31,465 nt of DNA from Leptospirales bacterium (GCA_050305335.1 JBNLFC010000001.1:1-31465), one strand, 5' to 3'. Positions 1 through 31,465 are shown, numbered from the stretch's first letter. Notes: generated from the sequence alone by a model not told the origin. A program made the numbers and translations.

Positions 1-76
1 TGGTGTCCGGTCCCCCGGCCCGCATGGGCCAGGAGAACTTTTTGCCCGCCGGAGTGACCGGACGTGTTGCCCGGCG
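1..76. repeat. 76-bp terminal direct repeat, identical to 31390-31465 (circular closure or terminal redundancy). GC-rich, with a nested hairpin GGCCC-GCAT-GGGCC at 17-30 inside an outer stem GTCCGGTC (5-12) / GACCGGAC (56-63).
   Basis: Exact match of the first and last 76 nt read directly; inverted repeats read directly. Confidence 0.9.
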
Positions 77-89
77 GAAATTGGAATTA

Positions 90-398
90 CTAAAAATCTT
101 CTATAATATCGAGAATCTCGCCAATATGTTTGCAGTTTTTTCCAACGGTTCGTTCGATTACGTCTCGAATGTCATCACCATAATTCTCATCCTCTACATC
201 GATGATCTCGCCGTCATCGCGCTCCTCATATGTGACAACGTGATCAGCGTAGAATTCTGCTCGTACTCGTGTTGTTTTCTGGCTCAAAACCCATGATCCG
301 GCGGCCAGCGCTTCATCTCTCGTCATGATCACATGCACATAATCAGACACGACCTCGACGCCGTTGAATTTCTCTGGTTTTACATATTCGATTAACAT
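90..398 (-). CDS. hypothetical acidic protein (102 aa)
   Basis: ORF with SD GAGGAG 7 nt upstream of ATG; start overlaps the stop of the upstream gene (400-402); shares a 22-nt leader with the 400-750 gene. Confidence 0.5.
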   Translation of the reverse strand: MLIEYVKPEKFNGVEVVSDYVHVIMTRDEALAAGSWVLSQKTTRVRAEFYADHVVTYEERDDGEIIDVEDENYGDDIRDVIERTVGKNCKHIGEILDIIEDF

Positions 399-399
399 G

Positions 400-750
400 T
401 TAGTTCTCCTCTATTTTTTGCGGGATTCCATCGCCCCGGCGGCGGGGCTGGTTCAAATAATAGGCGATTTTACCACACAAGATATTAACGTATCGTATTA
501 CGGGGTCCGATTCTATAGCAATTAATTTGTCTGCATACCTGTCGATGATTAGATCCAATTCAGTCTCTTGCTCTGGACTCACTCCGTCATATTCCGCTGA
601 GTCCCATTCGCGTTGATAGTCACAGAGTATACGAGCGACATCATTTTCTCGATGTACGAGATCGAGCGATTTCGCTACCTGCGAGGGGGTGGCTAAATTC
701 GCGAGGTAGCGAACTAACTCATGACAGATTTGATCTTTAGTTATTTTCAT
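400..750 (-). CDS. hypothetical protein (116 aa)
   Basis: ORF with SD GAGGAG, immediately downstream of a leftward sigma70-like promoter; a GC hairpin (433-448) lies in its 3' end. Confidence 0.5.
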   Translation of the reverse strand: MKITKDQICHELVRYLANLATPSQVAKSLDLVHRENDVARILCDYQREWDSAEYDGVSPEQETELDLIIDRYADKLIAIESDPVIRYVNILCGKIAYYLNQPRRRGDGIPQKIEEN

Positions 751-829: not shown

Positions 830-883
830 CTATTTTTTATCCATACGAGCAAAAAAAACGGAAAAAAATTGCAAAAATCGGGC

Positions 884-912
884 TTGACAGTCCTCTCTAT
901 ATATAGTAGAGT
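884..912 (+). promoter_or_regulatory. rightward sigma70-like promoter: TTGACA (884-889), 17-bp spacer, TAGAGT (907-912), with an upstream A-tract (851-880)
   Basis: Perfect -35 hexamer, 4/6 -10, A-rich UP-like element; precedes the first rightward gene at 933. Confidence 0.4.
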
Positions 913-932
913 CTCAAAACAGGCAAAAAACG

Positions 933-1157
933 ATGAAAATCCGGAGCACACAGCAGGCGGAGCAGCAATATCAGGAGATCATTGACTATTATGTCTCCTA
1001 CATCCAGCGGGCGGCCCGGGAGGCCGGCGGGATAGGGGCACTATCAGAGGCGCTTGGCAGGGAAAAATCTTATGCTCGGAAAATGATCTCGCGGCGGGCT
1101 ATAATTCCGCTGCGAGAGATAGTGCAGAAATTGGAGCGAGACAGGGGGATGGTGTGA
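933..1157 (+). CDS. small protein (74 aa), possibly an HTH-like DNA-binding protein
   Basis: First gene after the divergent promoter; segment GIGALSEALGREKSYARKMISRR is helix-turn-helix-like; stop overlaps the GTG start of the next gene. Confidence 0.35.
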   Translation: MKIRSTQQAEQQYQEIIDYYVSYIQRAAREAGGIGALSEALGREKSYARKMISRRAIIPLREIVQKLERDRGMV

Positions 1158-1669
1158 GTAAAAAGCCAAAAATAGAATATCTTCCTATCTCCAGTTTAAG
1201 ATCGTTCAAAAGAAATCCTCAGTATATGACAGAGCGGCAAATGACCGCTTTATCTAACTCGATAAAAAAAGATGGATTCGTTTCCCCAGCTCTTGTAAGA
1301 CCAATAAAAAATAACGAGTATGAGATAATTTCAGGTCATCATAGGATCATGGCAGCGCATAGAGCCGGATTAAAGGAAGTGCTGTGCGTAATTGCCTCTC
1401 TCACAGATAATCAGGCGAAGAGGCTGGTGGTCAATCTCAATACTATCCATGGCGAGCCAACCGCTGATCAATTGGCTCCTTTTCTCCTGGATGTGAAAGA
1501 TATTTCTGGCATTTTTCTTTCGGATGATCTTGAAAAGGCGGTTGGGGATATTGAAAACACAATCGCAAAACATATAAAAGAAATGAAAGTAAAAATTAAC
1601 AAACCGAGTAAGCAGGTTCCTAATTGCAAGTGCCCAATATGCGGACAAAAACATATCAAAAAAAAATAG
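1154..1669 (+). CDS. ParB N-terminal (ParB/Srx-like nuclease) domain protein with a C-terminal CxC...CxxC zinc ribbon
   Basis: Motif YEIISGHHRIMAAHRAGL matches the ParB box (yeIIaGerRwrAA..aGl); GTG start with AGGGGGA SD; C-terminal CKCPICGQKH. Confidence 0.75.
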   Translation: MSKKPKIEYLPISSLRSFKRNPQYMTERQMTALSNSIKKDGFVSPALVRPIKNNEYEIISGHHRIMAAHRAGLKEVLCVIASLTDNQAKRLVVNLNTIHGEPTADQLAPFLLDVKDISGIFLSDDLEKAVGDIENTIAKHIKEMKVKINKPSKQVPNCKCPICGQKHIKKK

Positions 1670-2109
1670 AACAATTGAGTGCAAACGATTACTCAATTGC
1701 AAAGGATGTTTTTAACAAAGGCAAGCATCCGGGATTTATTGGAAAGGGCATGCATGAAACAGCCTCCCGTAATGGCGGGGCATTTGCTGTGGTAATTGAT
1801 AAAAAAATAGCAGCCGTCGCCCTGGTAAATATGAGAAAAAATATTCTGACGGCTATCAATGTATTGCCTGAATATAGAAAGTCGGGAATCGGTCAAATGT
1901 TGATGAACTATATATCACCCAATTTCTGTCGAGTAATTGAGCCAGTAATCCCTTGGTTCGAAAAAATGGGATATGTAGTTTCAAGTGATTTTGTGGAAGG
2001 AAATAAATATCGCGTGGTAATTATGAGCATGAAAAATCTTGTCAACCTATCCAGAAAACATAAAATAACATGGGAAGGAGGGACAAAAATTGAAGACCAT
2101 CAGCATTAG
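1639..2109 (+). CDS. GNAT family N-acetyltransferase (frame open from 1624; true start unclear; possible -1 fusion to ParB through the A9 tract at 1658-1666)
   Basis: GNAT motif A YRKSGIGQMLM and typical beta-strand pattern; no convincing SD for an independent start. Confidence 0.65.
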   Translation: MRTKTYQKKIEQLSANDYSIAKDVFNKGKHPGFIGKGMHETASRNGGAFAVVIDKKIAAVALVNMRKNILTAINVLPEYRKSGIGQMLMNYISPNFCRVIEPVIPWFEKMGYVVSSDFVEGNKYRVVIMSMKNLVNLSRKHKITWEGGTKIEDHQH

Positions 2110-2428
2110 ACAGCCCTGGGCATGGGCAATTGTTTCCGGGCATAAACCAATAGAAAATAGAAATTGGGATACAAAATATAGAGGATTGATTCAAATTCAC
2201 GCATCAAAAAAAGATGACCCAGCGGGATATGAATTTCTGTCCAGAATGGGAATTGAGTGCCCGGAGAATCTACCCAGAGGCGGAATTATAGGAAAGGTGG
2301 AAATAGTCGATACAGTCAGAGAATCATCCAGTCCATGGTTTTTTGGAAAAATAGGATTTGTATTGATAAATGCGGTAATGGAAAATTTTAGGCCAGTTCG
2401 CGGCCAGCTTGGTATTTTTGAGGCTTGA
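2090..2428 (+). CDS. ASCH domain protein
   Basis: N-terminal IRQPWAWAI...GHKPIENRNW matches the ASCH GxKxxExR signature; TTG start with GGAGGG SD. Confidence 0.6.
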   Translation: MKTISIRQPWAWAIVSGHKPIENRNWDTKYRGLIQIHASKKDDPAGYEFLSRMGIECPENLPRGGIIGKVEIVDTVRESSSPWFFGKIGFVLINAVMENFRPVRGQLGIFEA

Positions 2429-2850
2429 AAATGGTAAAAAAAAAGGGAAACAGTGACAAAAACACAGACAAAAGACTTTTGAATCTCATTCCTTTTCAGC
2501 CAGGTCAATGCGGAAATCCGAAGGGCCGACCTCGCTTATCCGATGAGGAGAAAAAAGCGAGGCAGCAAGCTCGGCACGAGGTGGTTCGCTACCAGAAATA
2601 CAAAACCATGAGTCTGGATCAGCTCAAAAATTTAGACACAAAAATGCTGCCTGCCGTGGATGTTATTATCATCCGAAAAATTATAGATGACATCAAAAAC
2701 AGTGACACAACTGAATTACATCGGATGTGGTCCAGACAGTTAGGGGCACCTAAAACAGATGGGGAGAATCCGAAAATCGATCTATCAAACAGCAAGGTCG
2801 TTATCAGAATAGCCACAGGACAGACACAGGATAGTGAGGATGGAGGTTGA
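2425..2850 (+). CDS. putative terminase small subunit
   Basis: Basic protein with a GNPKGRP motif common in phage small-terminase/DUF5681 proteins; lies directly upstream of and overlaps the large terminase. Confidence 0.5.
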   Translation: MKMVKKKGNSDKNTDKRLLNLIPFQPGQCGNPKGRPRLSDEEKKARQQARHEVVRYQKYKTMSLDQLKNLDTKMLPAVDVIIIRKIIDDIKNSDTTELHRMWSRQLGAPKTDGENPKIDLSNSKVVIRIATGQTQDSEDGG

Positions 2851-4117
2851 ATTAGATGTTGAGCTCCTTCCGAAACAGGCTGAGTACGTAAACAGCATCT
2901 CGGATATAGCAATCTACCATGGAGGGGTTGGCTCGGGGAAAAGCATTGCTGATGTAGTGCTTGCAATCAAAACCGCAATCGAATGGCCGGGGATTGATAT
3001 TCTGGTAGGAGCTCCTACCTACGGTATGTTGCGGGACACGATCATGCGGGAATTCTCTGAGCGCTGCCCCTCCATCCTCCTGGAAAAATTCACGACAGGG
3101 ATCTACCCGGAAGCGGTATTCATCCCAAATCGCGGACAGCGATCTACAATTCGATTTCGATCATACGACAAACCTGGCAAACCTAAGGGACTGACAATCG
3201 GAATGGCGATACTGGATGAGATTACCGAGATCGAGGAGGATGTCCTGAACGAAATTTTGCGTCGCGTCCGCCAGGCTGGAATGCCGAACTACATCCGGTT
3301 TTCCACAAACCCGGATTCGAAAATGCACTATGTGTACAAGCGCTTCATCGAGCCGGCAGAGATGGGGACCATTCCGATCAATCGATTGCATTCTATCCAC
3401 ACCACCACCTATGACAATTTCCTTCTGCCGGAAAACTACATCAGGCAGATTGAGCAACTCAAGATCACGAACCCGGCAGAATACATGCGAGCCGTCCTCG
3501 GGCTCTGGGGCGATTTCGACGAAAACTCAATCGGAGCATTCGAGATAGTGCCGGCGTTCTCCTCTCCGTATCTCGTCGCCTTTCTCGATACATCATTCTC
3601 TGATTCCACCGTGTCTGATCGTACCGCACTCTCAATTGTCGGTTTCGTCCCGCAATTCGGGCTGGAAAACAAATACTGGCCCATTGAATTCACAGGGAAA
3701 AGCTGGCAGAAGAGCATAACCAACATCGAAGTTATTGTAGACATGCTCAATTTTCTGCACAGGTTCACACCGATCGAAGTCCAGGTAGAGTCTCAACTCG
3801 GGGATTCCACGCAAACATTCATTGACAATTTTCGGAACATGGAACGACAATTGAATCTGAGCCCGAAGAATCATTGGACCGTCCTCCACCAAACGAAAAA
3901 TAAACATGAGCGTATCATGCTGGAGGTGGCGGGGAATAAACCGAGAATGAAAGTTCTTGAGGATACGCCAGCGGATTATCTGAACCCAATTGTGGCCTAC
4001 ACAAAAAAGGCAGAGCATGATGATGAGGCGGATTCACTGGCAGGTGCGATAGAGTTGTGGCGAACCAGTAAGAACTTGCGAGACTATATATTGATGGCGG
4101 AAAGGGGGAAACGATAG
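2834..4117 (+). CDS. terL: terminase large subunit (PBSX/Terminase_6-like)
   Basis: Walker A GGVGSGKS, Walker B ILDEITEI, conserved FSTNPDS coupling motif and a C-terminal RNaseH-like nuclease region; SD GGAGG. Confidence 0.9.
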   Translation: MRMEVELDVELLPKQAEYVNSISDIAIYHGGVGSGKSIADVVLAIKTAIEWPGIDILVGAPTYGMLRDTIMREFSERCPSILLEKFTTGIYPEAVFIPNRGQRSTIRFRSYDKPGKPKGLTIGMAILDEITEIEEDVLNEILRRVRQAGMPNYIRFSTNPDSKMHYVYKRFIEPAEMGTIPINRLHSIHTTTYDNFLLPENYIRQIEQLKITNPAEYMRAVLGLWGDFDENSIGAFEIVPAFSSPYLVAFLDTSFSDSTVSDRTALSIVGFVPQFGLENKYWPIEFTGKSWQKSITNIEVIVDMLNFLHRFTPIEVQVESQLGDSTQTFIDNFRNMERQLNLSPKNHWTVLHQTKNKHERIMLEVAGNKPRMKVLEDTPADYLNPIVAYTKKAEHDDEADSLAGAIELWRTSKNLRDYILMAERGKR

Positions 4118-4287
4118 TGGGCATATCTCCTGAATTTATTGAATGGCTGAGGGAAAACGGCATAGAGGGAGCTCTGGAGTGGCTATATGATATGGCGAGA
4201 ACGACTCCTTATAAGAGTATGCAGGCAGACTCACTGGCGAAAGCTATGATCATTGAGAGTATGATTGAGGTAAAAAATGAGCGATAA
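4117..4287 (+). CDS. small ORF (56 aa) not in the ORF track
   Basis: GTG start overlapping the terL stop (taGTG), AAGGGGGA SD 8 nt upstream, fills an otherwise non-coding 160-bp gap. Hand-translated, no internal stops. Confidence 0.3.
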   Translation: MGISPEFIEWLRENGIEGALEWLYDMARTTPYKSMQADSLAKAMIIESMIEVKNER

Positions 4288-4462
4288 AGAAAAACTTATT
4301 GAATTACTTACTTCATTCGGAATAAAATTTGAAGATGAGGGATCTCATGTTAAAATCAGTGCCGATGGCGAATGTGAAAAGATAGATGGATATTTTTATT
4401 TTTATACTATATTTGAATTTAGCGAAGAGGGAAATTTTGTCCAGATAGGAATATGGGAATGA
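4277..4462 (+). CDS. hypothetical protein (61 aa)
   Basis: ORF with ATG; overlaps the next gene start. Confidence 0.35.
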   Translation: MSDKEKLIELLTSFGIKFEDEGSHVKISADGECEKIDGYFYFYTIFEFSEEGNFVQIGIWE

Positions 4463-20352: not shown

Positions 20353-21446
20353 TCTATACAGATCCAACATTCCGTGAATTGACCGCGCCAGGGTATTTCG
20401 ATTTCTCTTCTGGCCAGACCGCAAAAACGGCGGCCATGGTCGCGTGGTTCGATGCGGTGATGGCTCGATGGGGAGCTCAGGTAAATCTGTTTGACGAAAC
20501 ATTCCGCCTATGGGCAACCAGGGATTACTCGGCAGTCACGGTGTCAATGACACCATGGCTTCTGAGATTGCTGAACGAAAACGGGATAGGATGGTTCGGA
20601 GGAACAATAGAACAATCAGTTGCACTATTAACGTATATTTCTAAATCATACCCTTCCAGCATTGCGATGTGTTTCCAGGAGCTTTTTGAATTTCTGGCGG
20701 CAGCGCCGCTACAGTGGATGACAGGTGCCGGAACCATAGAAATTGGTCTGGATCTTCCTGCGAGATTCGCAGAGACTCTCATCATCTATTCCACATCGGG
20801 AACTCCTCCGGCAACGCCGGCAGCGACAGTATACACGGCACTTGAATGGACGGCGCCCACCGGGTGGGATAAAACCGCTTCGAGCGCGACTTATTATTCA
20901 CGTGGATATCTGTCCGGTGGAAATATCGTATGGATGACACCACGGGCAACCTCCGCTGTGTCAATGATGCAGGACGTGGCCGATCTCGGGAGTCTACCAG
21001 GAAGCCCTTCTGCCGGTGATCTCTGTGGTGTTGCCGATGACGGGACCGGGGACGTGGGAGCGATATACTATTACGACGGAGCAGCATGGCGCAAAACAAC
21101 AACTCCAAATGTGAACCAGGGAGAGGTGATATACGAAGTAGCTCCAGATCCGGGGTCAACTGTATTTGCTGAAAATGGATATGTTTCATCTACGATTCAA
21201 CCATCTGCCAGTGGCCCGAGTGAGGGATATGGCTATTACGGGATTTTCGGGGAATTCGTAATCTACCCGAGAAGAATAAACATCAAAATGGATCTTACAA
21301 CGGCAGGAGTTTCAAATCTGGGAATGATTGTTTATCTTTTCAGAAAGATAAAACCTACTCTGAATCAACTTGTTCTTCTATACACAACTCCCACAAATCC
21401 AGATTATACATTTATCGACGTTAAAGACATAGGAGCGGTATCATGA
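20349..21446 (+). CDS. baseplate/tail protein (gpI-like position)
   Basis: Synteny; ATGA coupling. Confidence 0.35.
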   Translation: MIYTDPTFRELTAPGYFDFSSGQTAKTAAMVAWFDAVMARWGAQVNLFDETFRLWATRDYSAVTVSMTPWLLRLLNENGIGWFGGTIEQSVALLTYISKSYPSSIAMCFQELFEFLAAAPLQWMTGAGTIEIGLDLPARFAETLIIYSTSGTPPATPAATVYTALEWTAPTGWDKTASSATYYSRGYLSGGNIVWMTPRATSAVSMMQDVADLGSLPGSPSAGDLCGVADDGTGDVGAIYYYDGAAWRKTTTPNVNQGEVIYEVAPDPGSTVFAENGYVSSTIQPSASGPSEGYGYYGIFGEFVIYPRRINIKMDLTTAGVSNLGMIVYLFRKIKPTLNQLVLLYTTPTNPDYTFIDVKDIGAVS

Positions 21447-22867
21447 CATTGCCTTATACAGACCCTGCATTATCCACAGCAGCAAATCCATATTTTCAGG
21501 ACAACTCATTTGTTCGGGGCGATCAGATGCGCGGAAATAATGAGAAGATCTGGGCAAATTCACAATATCTTGATAATATTGCAACAGATCATGAGTCAAG
21601 AATAACAGACCTTGAAGCGCACAGTCTGGAGTATTATCTATATGGTGTGGATTCTATTAATGGACCTACTACCATTTTAAGTCAATTTTCAACTATAGTA
21701 AATAACGTATCATCTAAAAATTATGCTTTGATATCTGATTATCAAAAATTAAGATTTTCAGTTCGTTCCATGGCTGATAATGGAGGTAATTCAGCAGCGG
21801 CAAAACATATCCGTTTAAATGACGATATGATATTAGTATGCTATTATGCATCAGGAACGACCTATGATTTTATAATATATTATAGAATTTCAAGATCTTT
21901 CGTTGCAGCAAGAGGATCTTCGACCATATCAGTAACAAGCGCAGGAGTAAATTCGATTGATGGGTGCTTATTAAATAATGGAAAGATTCTTATAATTGTA
22001 TACGCATCTACTACAACATACAAATTGTATATTTTTGACCCGGAATCTGAATCAATCGCAGCCGCTTCTGGCACACCTACGTTAACTGTAATAGCATCAG
22101 TAGCATCATTCAGACCATGCGTGAAAAAGTTAACCAATGGAAACGTTCTAATCTCGGTAACTGATACTGGATCTTCATATGATCTCTATATTTTCGATGA
22201 GGCAACCCAGACGGCAACGCCTGCTTCTGGAACTCCAAGTATATCAACTACCGGTACAGGCACACTGGAAATCATACCATTAGCAACTGGTGATTATCTA
22301 TTGACTGCTCCTGTTAGTCCTACTGCAACAAATCTCTATATTTTCGATGAGGCAACCCAGACGGCAACGCCTGCTTCTGGAACTCCAAGTATATCAATTA
22401 CCGCATGTGCTGATATGTTTGGGGCATGCGGTGTGGATGGGAATGTTCTATTAGTAGGAGGATCTGTTGGTGGAACTGCTTATAATCTCTATATTTTCAA
22501 TGTAGCAACTGAGACGGCAACGCCAGCGTCAGGAACTGCTTCAATAAGTGCAACGAAATCTTTATATGGAACAGTAAAATTATTACCTTCTGGACTGTTT
22601 TTACTAAAAGTTGTTAAGGAATATGGAACTAATGACTACGTTGATTATCTGTTATTTGATCCTTCTTCTGAATCAGCTACAAGCCCATATACGTTATCAG
22701 TTGCAGATGCTCAGAGAAGTCATGATTTGGTTTTATTTTCGAATAACTCTATAGTTACAAGTGATATATTCTCATCCTATCGAACTATTTATGTAATAGA
22801 TGGACCGTGGGGATCTGCAAATCGATATAAATTTCCTATGGAATTACAGGACGCCGGACTTGTATAA
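21443..22867 (+). CDS. tail fiber / receptor-binding protein with six ~50-aa internal repeats (Y-x-L-Y-I-F-D-x-x-T-x-T-A-T-P-A-S-G-T-P-S-I-S)
   Basis: Repeats read directly; two copies are near-identical at the DNA level (22182-22247 = 22332-22397). Confidence 0.5.
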   Translation: MTLPYTDPALSTAANPYFQDNSFVRGDQMRGNNEKIWANSQYLDNIATDHESRITDLEAHSLEYYLYGVDSINGPTTILSQFSTIVNNVSSKNYALISDYQKLRFSVRSMADNGGNSAAAKHIRLNDDMILVCYYASGTTYDFIIYYRISRSFVAARGSSTISVTSAGVNSIDGCLLNNGKILIIVYASTTTYKLYIFDPESESIAAASGTPTLTVIASVASFRPCVKKLTNGNVLISVTDTGSSYDLYIFDEATQTATPASGTPSISTTGTGTLEIIPLATGDYLLTAPVSPTATNLYIFDEATQTATPASGTPSISITACADMFGACGVDGNVLLVGGSVGGTAYNLYIFNVATETATPASGTASISATKSLYGTVKLLPSGLFLLKVVKEYGTNDYVDYLLFDPSSESATSPYTLSVADAQRSHDLVLFSNNSIVTSDIFSSYRTIYVIDGPWGSANRYKFPMELQDAGLV

Positions 22868-27007: not shown

Positions 27008-27841
27008 TCACTTTACGTTTACAAAAGGGACGGAGCTTCCGGGGATCATGGAGGTAGGCAATTTACCGTCCCATTTTTTTATCGCTTCCTGCTGCACTTT
27101 TATTCGCTCATATTCCAGAAGAGCTTGTGTAATCGATTGAGCTTTTTTGCGTAGGGCTTCTGCTTCACCTCTCGCCTGCGCAATTTGTTTATCTGCCTCT
27201 GCTCTGGCTTCAGCAACCTCATTCTCTCTCTGTTGCGCTTTCTGGGTAGCCTGGACTTTTGCATTAAGAGCTTCTGTCATAGCTGATGGCAATCTTAACT
27301 CTCCGATCCAGTAGATTTTATCCACTATTATTCCGAATTGAGACACCTGGCTTGATACATCTTTTTGCACTCGTTCGATTAAATCCGCTTTGCCTGCTCC
27401 ATATACGGATTCAATTTCATATCCTCCAGCGATTTTATTGAGAGAATCACGGACATAATTTCGCAGATATATATCAGTTATCTCATCGGTTCCCTTACGG
27501 AATTTCTCAAACAGAGCAGAAACTTTGGTAGGATCTATATGATATGATATACCCAAATCGGCTGAAACTTTCATTCCTTCTTTTGTTTGAAACGAAATCG
27601 ATTCGTCGTTTGGAGATCCTTCATCTCTGCTTTGAGTCCATACATAGTTTTGCTGGAATGTAGGAAAAAGATAAAGCTCTTCGTTTACTCCGATCCAATA
27701 TCGACCGATTCCAAGCTCTTCATGGTCCACGCCTTTTGATGTTCCTAGCAGGTAAACCTTTACGCCCACATGCCCGGCAGGAACTTTGCTACACGCCATC
27801 AATGTTGCAATCATCAGAAAATAAACAACAAGTTTTCTCAT
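27008..27841 (-). CDS. SPFH/Band-7 (prohibitin/HflC-like) domain lipoprotein
   Basis: Lipoprotein signal with LMAC lipobox; SPFH core followed by a long Ala/Glu/Gln-rich coiled coil (EVAEARAEADKQIAQARGEAEALRKKAQ) typical of Band-7 proteins. Confidence 0.7.
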   Translation of the reverse strand: MRKLVVYFLMIATLMACSKVPAGHVGVKVYLLGTSKGVDHEELGIGRYWIGVNEELYLFPTFQQNYVWTQSRDEGSPNDESISFQTKEGMKVSADLGISYHIDPTKVSALFEKFRKGTDEITDIYLRNYVRDSLNKIAGGYEIESVYGAGKADLIERVQKDVSSQVSQFGIIVDKIYWIGELRLPSAMTEALNAKVQATQKAQQRENEVAEARAEADKQIAQARGEAEALRKKAQSITQALLEYERIKVQQEAIKKWDGKLPTSMIPGSSVPFVNVK

Positions 27842-28110
27842 TCTATTACCTCACTAATTTTTTTGACGGCATATTTTATTACTGAAAAATCTGCCAGAAT
27901 CAGAATAATTCCGATAATAATTCCCGCAATCACAAATTCTGTAACTGAACTGGAAATAAAAATCGGCTCAATAACACCTATGACAAATGTATTCACAATC
28001 AAAAAAGTGATTATGAATACAAGATGTCTTAATTTTATTTTATCAATCATTTGCTTCATGCTCAGGATAATAGTTTTTCTGTATCTTCCAGATTGCTTTT
28101 GCGCATTCAA
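27838..28110 (-). CDS. small two-TM membrane protein (possible NfeD/YqiJ-like partner of the SPFH protein)
   Basis: Two hydrophobic helices; directly upstream of and translationally coupled to the SPFH gene, the canonical NfeD-SPFH gene order. Confidence 0.35.
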   Translation of the reverse strand: MNAQKQSGRYRKTIILSMKQMIDKIKLRHLVFIITFLIVNTFVIGVIEPIFISSSVTEFVIAGIIIGIILILADFSVIKYAVKKISEVIE

Positions 28111-28819
28111 AAACCTGACGAGAATTTATCCTATCGTCTGCATCCCAGAATTTAAAGTACCATTTTCCTGGATTCATTCTATCAATTATCAGGTTTGCTG
28201 TAAAATATAAAGGACCATCATATGCCATTGCATAAGCTTCTAATTGATAGCACCATTCTGGATAAAATACAGGTTTCTCTTTGACATCCTGAGATTTTAC
28301 ATCAATCAAGATTTTATCAAATGAACCAATCATTCCAATTAGATCATAAGTTCCAGCATAATCAGAGTTAACAATAATATTTTCTGATGATTTGATCCTG
28401 ATCTCATATTCATCAATGCAGGATTGAAATGCAATGAGATATTGCGTCATTTTATTCGAAAATGATTTGTGTTTAACATATGCTTCAATCGCTCTATGGA
28501 TCTGTGTCCCGAGATCGGCTGAATTTTTGGTATGCTCCTTCGCGTCTTTCACTGCTCGTTTTGCAAAATCATCCAGGGATTCGTCTTCTATTCGAGGCAA
28601 CGTAAGAGAAGCCAAAATGGCCTGTTCCTGTTTCCATGCCTCAAGCTGGGGTTTGTTGAGCACCTGGAGAATGCTGGTAACAGATGGTAGCAGATCCATT
28701 TTCCTGGCATCGCGCAAAGTGGTAGGACGCCATTCTCCGTTTTTAGATTGTACCTCATGCACTGGCCTACCATCTCTGGTGTACCAGTGCGCTGAGTTAT
28801 AGACAGTTATGAGCTTCAA
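28043..28819 (-). CDS. PD-(D/E)XK family nuclease (RecB/YqaJ/Cas4-like exonuclease)
   Basis: Motifs D (YDLIG), IDVK (E/D-x-K) and QLEAY (QxxxY) in the canonical order. Confidence 0.5.
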   Translation of the reverse strand: MKLITVYNSAHWYTRDGRPVHEVQSKNGEWRPTTLRDARKMDLLPSVTSILQVLNKPQLEAWKQEQAILASLTLPRIEDESLDDFAKRAVKDAKEHTKNSADLGTQIHRAIEAYVKHKSFSNKMTQYLIAFQSCIDEYEIRIKSSENIIVNSDYAGTYDLIGMIGSFDKILIDVKSQDVKEKPVFYPEWCYQLEAYAMAYDGPLYFTANLIIDRMNPGKWYFKFWDADDRINSRQVFECAKAIWKIQKNYYPEHEAND

Positions 28820-29745
28820 AACAGATCCTCCGTCTGTTCTGATGATGATTCTGGTTGTGCTGGAATGCTTTCGCCTTCCTGTTTGAACTTGAATTTAGAT
28901 TTTGCAAACCCGATAACGTCGAAACCATTGTGGCGAAGATCTGGATTTTTACCGTTTGTCGCTGTGTTCCATCGAGTTTCGATTACCTCAAGATCTTGCA
29001 ATGAGTTTGCCTTATCAACCTCATCCTGAAGGCGTTCGAGAGCTGATTTTGTCGGAGTAGGTTCTGGAATATCCTGCCCTTCGTTTAACCAATGAATCAG
29101 ATCCTTTCCGAGATCAACGCCTGGTTTTGGAATTATTGCGTCCTGATACTTTCCAGTTCTATCTTTAGTGACATGCCCGGAATGTTCTTCGCTAAGTTCG
29201 ATCAGCATGTCGAATTCATATTCGATACCCTTTCCCTGCTCAGGAGATAGACCGAGTTTTTTAGGTGCCACTTTCCCCTTGTCTGTTTCAATCAATGCAT
29301 ACTCAATTTTGCTGCGCATCGTTGCTATAACATGACCAGGGAATGAAAGAATGGAATTGACAAACATTTTTTGTTTCGGTGTCCCCTCGCTCCATGCGGA
29401 CCAGGTATTTCCTCGAAATTTTGATTGTGCAATCTTTTCCACTTCCTGTAACAGCTCTTGCCAGGCATGAGACATAGAGTCGATAATAAGGACATTGTAT
29501 TGACCTGATGCTTCTGCAATGTATTTCACATATTCAGAGATATCACATCTGTTAAGATCTACTGTGTCAAAATCAAATCGATCCGCATATTTTGACGCGG
29601 AAGATCTCTCGGAATCGATCAGGGCAATTTTCCCTCCAATTCCTGTAGCGATAGAAAGAGCTGTATAGGTTTTTCCGCTTCCAGGAGGACCGAATATTGC
29701 ACAGCGTAGTTTAGATTTACTTTTAACTGCCTTTTTAAAGCTCAT
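28816..29745 (-). CDS. AAA_24 / Sak4-like RecA-fold ATPase (phage single-strand annealing/recombination ATPase)
   Basis: Walker A GPPGSGKT near the N-terminus, Walker B LIIDS, ~230-aa core with a C-terminal acidic tail; adjacent to the nuclease. Confidence 0.65.
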   Translation of the reverse strand: MSFKKAVKSKSKLRCAIFGPPGSGKTYTALSIATGIGGKIALIDSERSSASKYADRFDFDTVDLNRCDISEYVKYIAEASGQYNVLIIDSMSHAWQELLQEVEKIAQSKFRGNTWSAWSEGTPKQKMFVNSILSFPGHVIATMRSKIEYALIETDKGKVAPKKLGLSPEQGKGIEYEFDMLIELSEEHSGHVTKDRTGKYQDAIIPKPGVDLGKDLIHWLNEGQDIPEPTPTKSALERLQDEVDKANSLQDLEVIETRWNTATNGKNPDLRHNGFDVIGFAKSKFKFKQEGESIPAQPESSSEQTEDLF

Positions 29746-29942
29746 TCCTCACCTCTCCCTCGCATCTCTGCAAGCTCCTCGTATATATCGTCCATCTCTG
29801 CGGGAGTTATGGTATCTGTTATATCTACTCCGTCTCTCTCTACTCTCTCAATCTCCAGTATTCCGGAGTATCCTACTCGTGGTTCTGGAGGTGCATAATA
29901 GATCTCTACCTCTGCTCCTGGGATAGTGCTGATAGATATCAT
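29742..29942 (-). CDS. hypothetical acidic protein (66 aa)
   Basis: ORF, coupled (ATGA overlap). Confidence 0.35.
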   Translation of the reverse strand: MISISTIPGAEVEIYYAPPEPRVGYSGILEIERVERDGVDITDTITPAEMDDIYEELAEMRGRGEE

Positions 29943-30199
29943 GACAGCACCTCACGGGTGATTCGATACAATCTCCAATTTTTCCCCTTCAATCTACGCG
30001 CGGATAGATTATGCAACCAGATCCGGGCTCGCATGTGCCGGTTGGCCTGTTTCCGCAGGTAATCAATCTCTTTTTGCATCGAACAGTGTACCTCCTCTAT
30101 CCGACGGATCTCCTCTCTTGCGCTGGATTTTTCCGGCACGTACACTCTGTCGAGATTGCGCAGAGTTCGCAGCTCGTATTCTATGTCATATGGTTGCAT
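29939..30199 (-). CDS. hypothetical basic protein (86 aa)
   Basis: ORF, coupled. Confidence 0.35.
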   Translation of the reverse strand: MQPYDIEYELRTLRNLDRVYVPEKSSAREEIRRIEEVHCSMQKEIDYLRKQANRHMRARIWLHNLSARRLKGKNWRLYRITREVLS

Positions 30200-30765
30200 T
30201 GTTTTTTATTCTCCTGTTCCGTTTTGATGAATTTCTCTGCAACAAACGAAAGAACCTCGAACGCAAATTTTCTGCGATTTGATTCATAGGAATCATCGTT
30301 CGGAAATTCGTTATCGTTATTCCAAAAGTCATTAGCCCACTCCTGTTGCGACCTGTAATGACAACCAAATCTCATATACACCGAATCGTCATAAAATATA
30401 ACGAGAGTATTTTTGTATCTGTATAGATTATTGTAAAACGATATATGTTTTACAAGCTTATTTTTGTATAAAATTTTGCCGACTGCGCGAATGTCGCCGT
30501 TTGCGTCAATGTGTCCGACTGCGTCAATGTGTCCGACTGCGTGAATGTAGCCGTCTGCGTGAATGTAGCCGCTTGCGTCAATGTGTCCGACTGCGTCAAT
30601 GTTGCCGTCTGCGTGAATGTAGCCGATTGCGCGAATGTCGCCGTTTGAGCGAATGGAGCCGTCTGTGCGAATGTCGCAATTAAATTCAATTGAATCCTCG
30701 ACAATAAAATTGCCATAATTGTTCAGCATTGAATTAAACTGTTCTTGAGTGTCTATAGTTAACAT
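30181..30765 (-). CDS. hexapeptide-repeat protein: ~11 tandem G-[HY]-I-[DHR]-A-[VDS] units encoded by the 18-bp tandem repeat, plus a Tyr/Asn-rich C-terminal domain
   Basis: SD AGGAGT 7 nt upstream of ATG; repeat units read directly in the translation. Confidence 0.5.
   Translation of the reverse strand: MLTIDTQEQFNSMLNNYGNFIVEDSIEFNCDIRTDGSIRSNGDIRAIGYIHADGNIDAVGHIDASGYIHADGYIHAVGHIDAVGHIDANGDIRAVGKILYKNKLVKHISFYNNLYRYKNTLVIFYDDSVYMRFGCHYRSQQEWANDFWNNDNEFPNDDSYESNRRKFAFEVLSFVAEKFIKTEQENKKQCNHMT
30481..30678. repeat. 11 x 18-bp head-to-tail tandem repeat, consensus G(A/T)(C/T)TGCG(T/C)(C/G)AATGT(A/G)(G/T)CC
   Basis: Units aligned by eye; all three frames on both strands are stop-free across the array. 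Confidence 0.9.
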
Positions 30766-31070
30766 GTTTTTTCTACTCCTGTTATCTCGAATGGAATTGC
30801 GAATAGATGTTTACCCTCTCGCTCTATTGATATGTTGTCAAGCTCAGGATGTCGCTTCTGGATTGCGGTAGCGATTATATCTCTGTTCCGATTAAGACGC
30901 CGCTCCAATTGTCCCAGAAGCGATTTCAGTCTGCGTACGGTCAATTCGTCGCAATCCGGATCGTCGATCGTTTTTAGGTATGCGTCCGCATCTCGCATGA
31001 TATCCTCATTTAATAGAACGAGGTCTATAATTTCAAGATTCACTTCGTGTGATAGATGTATGCGTACCAT
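30759..31070 (-). CDS. hypothetical protein (103 aa), first gene of the leftward unit
   Basis: SD GGAGG 9 nt upstream of ATG. Confidence 0.5.
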   Translation of the reverse strand: MVRIHLSHEVNLEIIDLVLLNEDIMRDADAYLKTIDDPDCDELTVRRLKSLLGQLERRLNRNRDIIATAIQKRHPELDNISIEREGKHLFAIPFEITGVEKTC

Positions 31071-31146
31071 TTTATTTTCCTCCAGAATTCAATTTGCGTT
31101 CAGGGGCAATAATATGACTCAGCATAAACTGAATCATAACCCGATG

Positions 31147-31219
31147 TGCCGTGTGTGTGGTTCGAACAAACGACCCCATGATTACAAAACAGATGCTCTA
31201 CCAACTGAGCTAAATCGGC
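31147..31219 (-). other. 73-nt tRNA-Thr(UGU)-like sequence, probably a pseudo-tRNA or tRNA-derived element (perfect D-arm and T-loop; 5 mispairs in the acceptor, anticodon and T stems)
   Basis: Minus strand reads GCCGATT TA GCTC AGTTGGTA GAGC A TCTGT TTTGTAA TCATG GGGTC GTTTG TTCGAAC CACAC ACACGGC A; canonical lengths for every element; no CCA. Confidence 0.35.
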
Positions 31220-31227
31220 ATAATTCA

Positions 31228-31245
31228 CCCCCGGTTTCCCGGGGG
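31228..31245. other. hairpin CCCCCGG-TTTC-CCGGGGG, second copy of the CCCCGGTTTCCCGGGG motif, 8 nt 5' of the tRNA-like element on the minus strand
   Basis: Read directly; core identical to 26977-26992 in the same orientation. Confidence 0.6.
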
Positions 31246-31389
31246 ATCCTCAACAACTCCGGTCTCTCCCAGTGTCTCGCTATTCGTAGCGTTCGTCCCC
31301 GTGGGGAAGATCTCCAGCGTCCCGGAGATCGGCAATCGGGCTTGTGACCGATCAATGCGCATTACCGCCCGCATAGGGCGTCACTCTGC

Positions 31390-31465
31390 TGGTGTCCGGT
31401 CCCCCGGCCCGCATGGGCCAGGAGAACTTTTTGCCCGCCGGAGTGACCGGACGTGTTGCCCGGCG
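31390..31465. repeat. right copy of the 76-bp terminal direct repeat
   Basis: Identical to 1-76. Confidence 0.9.

Follow-up and report, generated by a model that had tools for sequence, protein, structure and literature searches.

The window, by which we mean the whole 31,465-nucleotide stretch of DNA that was analysed, carries a compact phage genome. Its first 76 bases are repeated at its end as an exact direct repeat (1-76 = 31390-31465), so the assembly is circular (or terminally redundant) and holds 31,389 bp of unique sequence. Once the circle is closed, the genes at 90-750 (minus) lie directly upstream of a 408-nt non-coding island, which holds a twister ribozyme, a set of hairpins, and a tRNA-like element. 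The minus-strand operon runs in the order ORF116, ORF102, island, ORF103, ORF194, small ORFs, Sak4-like ATPase, exonuclease, and SPFH/Band-7 protein. Its features, read along the minus strand, are as follows.

829-801, minus: promoter-like site before ORF116
400-750, minus: ORF116, upstream of ORF102
90-398, minus: ORF102, the last gene upstream of the island once the circle is closed
31391-31465, minus: structured leader upstream of the twister (z = -3.04), identical to window positions 2-76 through the assembly wrap
31336-31390, minus: twister-P5 self-cleaving ribozyme (RF02684)
31220-31335, minus: spacer from ribozyme to tRNA, 116 nt, with four or five stable hairpins
31147-31219, minus: degenerate tRNA-Thr(UGU) gene, 73 nt (RF00005, ARAGORN, homology to phage tRNA-Thr)
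31151-31160, minus: run CCACACACAC within the tRNA-like element, tRNA positions 60-69 (read from the sequence)
31071-31146, minus: trailer from tRNA to ORF103, with an 11-bp hairpin at 31113-31138 (z = -2.99)
30759-31070, minus: ORF103, the first gene downstream of the tRNA
30181-30765, minus: ORF194, repeat-containing, after ORF103
28816-29745, minus: Sak4-like AAA_24 ATPase, downstream in the same operon
28043-28819, minus: exonuclease, same operon
27008-27841, minus: SPFH/Band-7 protein, same operon

The plus strand encodes ParB-like, GNAT, terminase, portal, head, baseplate, tail-fibre, and endolysin-like peptidase genes. The GNAT acetyltransferase-domain protein (161 aa, 1624-2109, plus; Pfam Acetyltransf_7/10/1) belongs to the early plus-strand block and adjoins the gene for the ParB-like nuclease-domain protein (1154-1669); some GNAT toxins acetylate aminoacyl-tRNAs. 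A pair of 72-bp near-identical direct repeats (22182-22253 and 22332-22403, spaced 150 bp) lies inside a 474-aa ORF at 21443-22867, and was detected as off-diagonal blastn matches between the window and L047. A plus-strand ORF over the tRNA-like element (30832-31347) was rejected as spurious, being antisense to ORF103 and absent from the called genes of a near-identical NCBI contig. Pfam and PHROG matches for 37 of the ~43 ORFs included no integrase, excisionase, or repressor family, and the six remaining ORFs, which fell outside that scan, encode 80-160 aa, too short for an integrase. An earlier note on this DNA had remarked that no integrase or repressor remains; the scans are consistent with this but do not prove it, as most ORFs match nothing. 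Inference of the host from the terminase and from cluster metadata gave no usable result. ACA is the commonest Thr codon of the phage (33-38%, 235 codons).

On the minus strand, 31147-31219 reads GCCGAUUUAGCUCAGUUGGUAGAGCAUCUGUUUUGUAAUCAUGGGGUCGUUUGUUCGAACCACACACACGGCA and parses as the cloverleaf GCCGAUU-UA-GCUC-AGUUGGUA-GAGC-A-UCUGU-UUUGUAA-UCAUG-GGGUC-GUUUG-UUCGAAC-CACAC-ACACGGC-A. The 73-nt length, perfect D-arm, UUCGAAC T-loop, and U33-UGU-A37 anticodon loop that the earlier note had described are all present. Infernal aligned the element across the full RF00005 model (positions 1-71) and gave it 42.0 bits, where the gathering score is 29 (E = 8e-6, whole window). ARAGORN, one of the checks that had been proposed, also called the locus, at 31146-31219, though as tRNA-Tyr(GUA); its Tyr label results from the weak anticodon stem having been moved by one base. 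Because the alignment to tRNA-Thr genes is gap-free, UGU (31184-31186) is the ancestral anticodon register, and in that register tRNA positions U36-A41 read UAAUCA. No CCA is encoded, the gene ending in GGCA followed by CAU. This is the only tRNA gene in the 31.4-kb genome.

The stretch at 31147-31219 is a genuine full-length homologue of tRNA-Thr(UGU), far beyond chance. When 29500-31465 was compared by blastn with 50,697 phage records, 79 records were matched, each over a stretch of ~75-80 nt confined to the tRNA-like element and at 77-82% identity, and nearly all of them are annotated as tRNA-Thr at the aligned stretch. Over its full length, the element is 77-82% identical to annotated phage tRNA-Thr genes. 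The closest similarity is to Thr genes, with UGU in the homologous register, and a covariance model built from 22 tRNA-Thr genes scores the element at 63.4 bits. The loop and tertiary bases that are conserved in tRNAs, namely U8, A14, G18, G19, A21, U33, G53, U54, U55, C56, A58, and C61, are all kept (alignment posterior marked by an asterisk in Infernal). ThrRS recognizes its substrate through G1-C72, C2-G71, G35, and U36, and these identity elements are likewise intact.

The stems are a different matter: 16 of the 21 pairs are canonical in the Infernal alignment and five are not. Two tandem mispairs lie in the acceptor stem (A5.A68 and U6.C67), two in the anticodon stem (C28.U42 and U31.U39), which is left with merely two contiguous pairs, and one in the T stem (U51.C63), so that the acceptor/T minihelix holds three of the five. 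Infernal flags exactly these five pairs, which agree, stem by stem, with the counts in the earlier note. The (CA)n run noted there at the 3' end corresponds to CCACACACAC at 31151-31160, which makes up the 3' strands of the T stem and lower acceptor stem and contains three of the five mispairing bases (C63, C67, and A68).

The energetic cost of these mispairs is large. Computed in ViennaRNA with non-canonical pairs left open, the element's cloverleaf has an energy of -3.1 kcal/mol and lies 12.4 kcal/mol above its own minimum free energy (MFE), while six comparator cloverleaves reach -20 to -28 kcal/mol and lie 0-3.8 kcal/mol from their minima. An in-silico "repaired" version of the element returns to -19.8 kcal/mol. 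The anticodon stem is missing from the MFE fold of the native element, and shuffled versions of the sequence fold equally well (MFE z = -0.05). A cloverleaf with four canonical stems is not the preferred fold of this sequence.

A similar picture emerged from model scores. Five phage tRNA-Thr comparators, all of which encode CCA, reach 59-73 bits on RF00005, and the tRNAs next to them reach 54-76 bits. From 22 cellular tRNA-Thr(UGU) genes we trained a pair of covariance models: the first includes the cloverleaf, the second considers only the sequence. On the sequence-only model, the element scores 60.4 bits, the highest value tested and one inflated by the training genes having been found through its own nucleotides 18-38, compared with 36.8-55.2 bits for the five phage tRNA-Thr genes. 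Adding structure raises the element by 3.0 bits, to 63.4, and the five phage genes by 23.5-37.9 bits, to 73.6-83.2; the two models are weighted differently, and the contrast between sequences is still valid. The pattern that tRNAscan-SE takes as a sign of a possible pseudogene is a total of less than 55 bits, of which structure supplies less than 5 (PMC8450103). The element resembles that pattern by analogy only, with 42 bits on Rfam and +3.0 bits of structure from our own, differently weighted models. Of 50 other ARAGORN-called tRNAs in the fetched viral loci, 43 have 0-1 non-canonical stem pairs, against four for the element even in ARAGORN's most favourable register. Since the cloverleaf is not thermodynamically favoured now, the element would have lost an efficient adaptor role in translation.

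Both halves of the earlier description, an element too tRNA-like to be chance and too damaged to be an ordinary tRNA, agree with these results: 42.0 bits against a threshold of 29 and 79 matching phage records on one side, and 59-73 bits in comparators, -3.1 kcal/mol, and +3.0 bits of structure on the other. The RF00005 score lies above the threshold, and the similarity to tRNA-Thr extends past the D-arm, reaching nucleotides 1-38 of the Lactobacillus acetotolerans gene.

The damage can be assigned to one side of the molecule. A scan for element nucleotides 18-38 across one genome for each of 185,579 species (GTDB) found 22 loci, all 22 of which are tRNA-Thr(UGU), and in every one the strand opposite UCUGU is ACAGR or CCAGA. 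The tRNA-Thr(UGU) of L. acetotolerans is identical to the element at nucleotides 1-38 and in the variable loop. Given these 22 loci and the L. acetotolerans identity, U39 and U42 are derived. The 5' acceptor strand GCCGAUU was found again in several other tRNA-Thr genes. No counterpart appeared for the other strands: the T-arm followed by the 3' end CACACGGCA had no match in the GTDB species genomes or in JGI metagenomes, and neither the 3' strand of the anticodon arm, nor the T-arm, nor the exact 44-nt tRNA core was found in IMG/VR. As the 5' strands recur and the 3' strands are matched nowhere in these collections, all five mispairs are best placed as 3'-strand changes, falling into two putative patches at 39/42 and 63/67/68. 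The second patch gives the (CA)n run, by turning a CAAACAAUC-like sequence into a perfect CACACACAC, and would more plausibly stem from a single local event, such as slippage or a templated patch, than from three separate changes.

Two other origins of the 3' half were considered. Inheritance of the 3' strand from a tRNA with a complementary 5' strand was rejected, no such tRNA being present in GTDB genomes, JGI metagenomes, or IMG/VR. Fusion of two tRNA-Thr lineages within the anticodon loop appears unsupported, given that the 3' half is about 66-74% identical to each tRNA-Thr lineage, with no single lineage closer (manual count on aligned sequences). Aeromonas phages 31 and Aes012 carry U42 and a 28:42 mismatch in apparently normal tRNA genes.

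The twister ribozyme and the stable hairpins around the element were not part of the earlier note. The twister at 31336-31390 matches the full RF02684 model (positions 1-58) at 48.6 bits against a gathering score of 37.6 (E = 2e-7). The highly conserved twister bases are all present (GCAGAG, UAAUGC, GCA, CGGUC, and CAAGCCCG), and the MFE fold of the region gives P2, P1, and P4. Judged by its sequence, the ribozyme is intact and is predicted to self-cleave, at what we take to be U31364^A31363, the U^A step 3' of P1. The predicted cleavage site is 144 nt upstream of the tRNA 5' end; 116 nt separate the end of the ribozyme from the tRNA-like element, and the ribozyme has co-oriented gene blocks on both sides.

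The rest of the island is structured as well. Compared with shuffles, the leader (z -3.0), spacer (-3.6), and trailer (-3.0) all fold better, and the tRNA-like segment does not. The spacer (31220-31335) has an MFE of -49.7 kcal/mol (z = -3.64) and no Rfam match at E <= 1. Its start, UUGCCGAU, repeats the tRNA 5' end through the 7-mer TGCCGAT, found at 31334 and 31220. In the MFE fold of the whole leader, the spacer copy of this 7-mer pairs with the tRNA 3' end and trailer (CGGCACAUCGGG). GCCGAU and a hairpin following the twister, considered as a possible further tRNA-like fragment, were dismissed as coincidence, with only the 7-mer shared, a 7-bp hairpin stem, and no ARAGORN or Rfam call. After the trailer hairpin comes a ribosome-binding site, GGAGGA, lying before the ATG at 31070. 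The island was found to contain neither promoter-like nor terminator-like sites, including any for the tRNA itself. For this reason, co-transcription with the operon is the simplest assumption, and the element would be transcribed as part of the minus-strand early/recombination operon.

We then looked at relatives. One NCBI contig (GCA_050305915.1, JBNLGF010000001.1) is 99.5-99.8% identical to the window, with an island that is 100% identical, and differs mainly by 270 bp extra in the downstream tandem-repeat gene; the only other copies found were Logan fragments ending short of the island. The tandem repeat in question, in ORF194 at 30478-30677, has an 18-bp unit (six codons) in ~11 copies, and the ORF194 of the NCBI contig is 284 aa long (270 bp longer), so that copy number differs between isolates. 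ORF103 had a sole match among 5.8 billion proteins, the same protein of this contig. The nearest relatives of the Sak4-like protein share 56-69% identity with it, and none exceeds 69%. The nearest Sak4-bearing relatives (L174, L175, and L001-L046) have neither a tRNA nor a twister at the equivalent place. By this comparison, the RNA island is lineage-specific as judged from the available sequences, and no diverged relative of it, in which covariation or decay could show, was found. A more distant Sak4-bearing relative (L010, IMGVR_UViG_3300037424_003018, 871-4461, plus) has genes for tRNA-Val, tRNA-Met, and tRNA-Pro on the strand of its recombination module, upstream of it. At 43.5 bits on RF00005, the tRNA-Met of this relative shows that low-scoring tRNAs at such positions are not unique to the window.

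Recurrence of the pair was assessed in IMG/VR, where a core twister pattern identified at least 120 loci with 140 sites. A tRNA lies within 1.5 kb at 5 of the 140 viral twister sites, and within 300 nt downstream at none of the 140 (120 IMG/VR loci). A pattern that places the twister P4 loop 110-140 nt upstream of this D-arm had no match in JGI metagenomes or IMG/VR. These counts suggest that the combination of a twister and a tRNA is probably not a general functional unit. Four IMG/VR loci (L058, L076, L096, and L146) have a tRNA (Phe, His, Ile, and Ile, respectively) 350-460 nt upstream of a same-strand twister, an order opposite to that of the window.

The reading that we favour, and to which we give about an even chance, is that the element is a recently decayed phage-borne tRNA-Thr(UGU), a young pseudogene. 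Of the three origins raised in the earlier note, a decaying phage tRNA gene fits best; a tRNA-like RNA with another role has become somewhat more plausible with the twister and hairpins; and a relic of integration has lost ground, given its unmatched 3' half and full-length gene. Under decay, the ancestor would have been a canonical tRNA-Thr with an anticodon arm UCUGU-UUUGUAA-ACAGG and an acceptor stem GCCGAUU/AAUCGGC. Mutations in two short patches, both on 3' strands (39/42 and 63/67/68), would have opened five stem pairs and left the loops and tertiary-contact bases untouched. The decayed gene would now be carried along in the operon leader, inside the structured, untranslated island of 408 nt. 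This account starts from observed features (the homology, the damage, the 3' half unique to this element, and its genomic context), and the order of mutations within it is one that we infer. The Sak4-bearing relatives without a tRNA or twister at this place support a recent, lineage-specific presence. Several points count against decay: a 31.4-kb genome has little room for junk, and the surrounding island is structured, with an intact ribozyme; the loop and tertiary bases and the ThrRS identity elements are intact, and ACA is the commonest Thr codon; and presumably working phage tRNAs exist with a 28:42 mismatch (Aeromonas 31, Aes012) or with scores in the low 40s (the L010 tRNA-Met).

Some of these same points could be read as signs of a tRNA that still works, which we consider unlikely. 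A mismatch-tolerant tRNA-Thr(UGU) might decode ACA, or stand in for a host tRNA-Thr(UGU) that an anticodon nuclease has destroyed; in the cell, tertiary contacts, modifications, and protein partners would keep it stable. The Rfam score over threshold, the invariant loop bases, the U33-UGU-A37 loop, and the intact upper acceptor stem are consistent with this, as are the heavy use of ACA among the Thr codons (235 codons) and the fact that tRNA-Thr(UGU) genes are common in phages. The missing CCA is also seen in many cellular tRNA-Thr genes, such as L181. [quoted passage not shown] However, the element keeps the AriB-sensitive U36AAUC^A41 (^ marking the cut) and is not an escape variant. The structural evidence also argues against a working molecule: five broken pairs, including the acceptor tandem mismatch, and an anticodon stem with only two contiguous pairs; a cloverleaf 12.4 kcal/mol above the MFE; a structure gain of ~3 bits, compared with 23-38 bits in real tRNA-Thr genes; and an anticodon register that is ambiguous between UGU and GUA.

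A similarly improbable reading gives the element a role in RNA processing. Here, an exapted tRNA-like processing or stability module would cut the early polycistronic RNA together with the twister. In detail, which we hold just as tentatively, the ribozyme cut at 31364/31363 and RNase P/RNase Z cuts at the tRNA-like ends would give separate ends and half-lives to the ORF116-ORF102 and ORF103-recombination messages. The placement of the element is suggestive, between co-oriented gene blocks and in an island without a promoter-like or terminator-like site, as is the retention of a 408-nt island in a compact genome, with an intact twister and flanks at z -3.0 to -3.6. RNase P and RNase Z chiefly read the top of the acceptor stem, the T-loop, and the D-arm, and all of these are preserved here, the acceptor top with four G-C pairs. 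Phage theta ribozymes offer a precedent for a ribozyme joined to a tRNA (PMC10879173). Against such a module, the twister-then-tRNA order does not recur (0/140 within 300 nt, and 0 matches for the twister-plus-D-arm pattern), three of the five mispairs fall in the acceptor/T minihelix itself, and the tRNA-like segment, taken alone (z = -0.05), shows no selected alternative fold.

Taken more broadly, a crippled cloverleaf might have been kept on purpose, either as punctuation that splits the operon RNA together with the twister or as a U36AAUC^A41 mimic that diverts a nuclease such as PARIS AriB. We regard this as doubtful; if true, it would be a new use of the tRNA fold in a small phage. The second of these roles, an unchargeable decoy soaking up a host nuclease aimed at tRNA-Thr(UGU), is very improbable when taken by itself. 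The element does keep U36-A-A-U-C^A41, which surrounds the site where AriB cuts tRNA-Thr(UGU) and tRNA-Lys(UUU) of E. coli, and the 22 cellular genes with the same 5' strand have A39 instead. Yet UAAUCA is ordinary in many tRNA-Thr(UGU) genes, including those of the Alishewanella and Bacillus phages, the case is purely circumstantial, and we are aware of no earlier example of such a tRNA decoy.

The least probable reading, with hardly any weight in our view, takes the element for what remains of an attP or attL site, left from integration at a tRNA gene when the phage was temperate, an origin suggested by a tRNA-derived sequence in a phage without a detectable integrase and by damage found only on the 3' side of the anticodon loop, a pattern that a hybrid junction could leave, but contradicted by a full-length gene in place of a 3' fragment, with its 5' 38 nt as the canonical half, by a 3' half that should match the host tRNA and matches nothing (185,579 species genomes and JGI metagenomes), by the integrase, excisionase, and repressor not found, by the lack of an att-arm-like flanking repeat beyond a 7-mer, by a position inside an operon leader beside a ribozyme, and by U51.C63, which lies within a single half and cannot be produced by a junction. 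An attP is normally the 3' part of a tRNA only, matching the host gene. The earlier suggestion of an integration-site relic is not borne out, with no match for the 3' end in GTDB or JGI, a full-length gene, and no recombinase.

Whichever reading holds, the locus calls for caution in annotation. ARAGORN names it tRNA-Tyr, Rfam passes it as a tRNA, and similarity points to tRNA-Thr, and it probably decodes nothing. Counting it as a phage tRNA, or deriving a host, lifestyle, or att site from it, is unsafe. To our knowledge, no biological role has yet been established for the twister ribozymes of bacteria and phages, and the island is a compact, genetically simple locus in which to ask whether ribozyme cleavage and tRNA-type processing shape phage mRNA.

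Several known systems can be set beside the window. Phage tRNA-Thr(UGU) genes, such as those of Alishewanella phage Slickus01, Aeromonas phages 31 and Aes012, and Bacillus phage MarvelLand, share with the element the anticodon, D-arm, T-loop type, and 5-nt variable loop; the Aeromonas genes also share U42 and the 28:42 mismatch. They differ in having 0-1 mispairs, 59-73 bits, cloverleaves at -21 to -24 kcal/mol, and an encoded CCA, and in sitting in tRNA arrays of 140-175-kb genomes. The tRNA-Thr(UGU) of L. acetotolerans DSM 20749 is like the element at nucleotides 1-38, in the variable loop, and in having no encoded CCA, but 12 of its 35 3'-half nucleotides differ, including A39U and G42U, which break two pairs. 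With the pseudogenes recognised by tRNAscan-SE the comparison is by analogy only: the element has a high primary-sequence score and almost no gain from base pairing, as measured with our own, differently weighted models.

For the ribozyme, the closest parallel is with the theta (HDV-like) ribozymes of gut phages, which adjoin viral tRNAs and have been implicated in their 3' processing (PMC10879173). As in those units, a small self-cleaving ribozyme and a phage tRNA gene share one strand and one non-coding stretch. The window differs in that its ribozyme is a twister-P5, lies 116 nt upstream, and belongs to a pairing that is not recurrent; by this spacer and by the lack of recurrence, it falls outside the theta-like processing units. 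Compared with other twisters of phages and prophages (RF02684), which are common in viral contigs, the ribozyme is itself ordinary, with a full-length match and every highly conserved base, and the one uncommon thing about it is that a tRNA-like element follows shortly downstream. The juxtaposition of the two in a very small genome is likewise uncommon. Degenerate phage tRNA genes and phage twisters are both known kinds, and the window adds a new instance of each.
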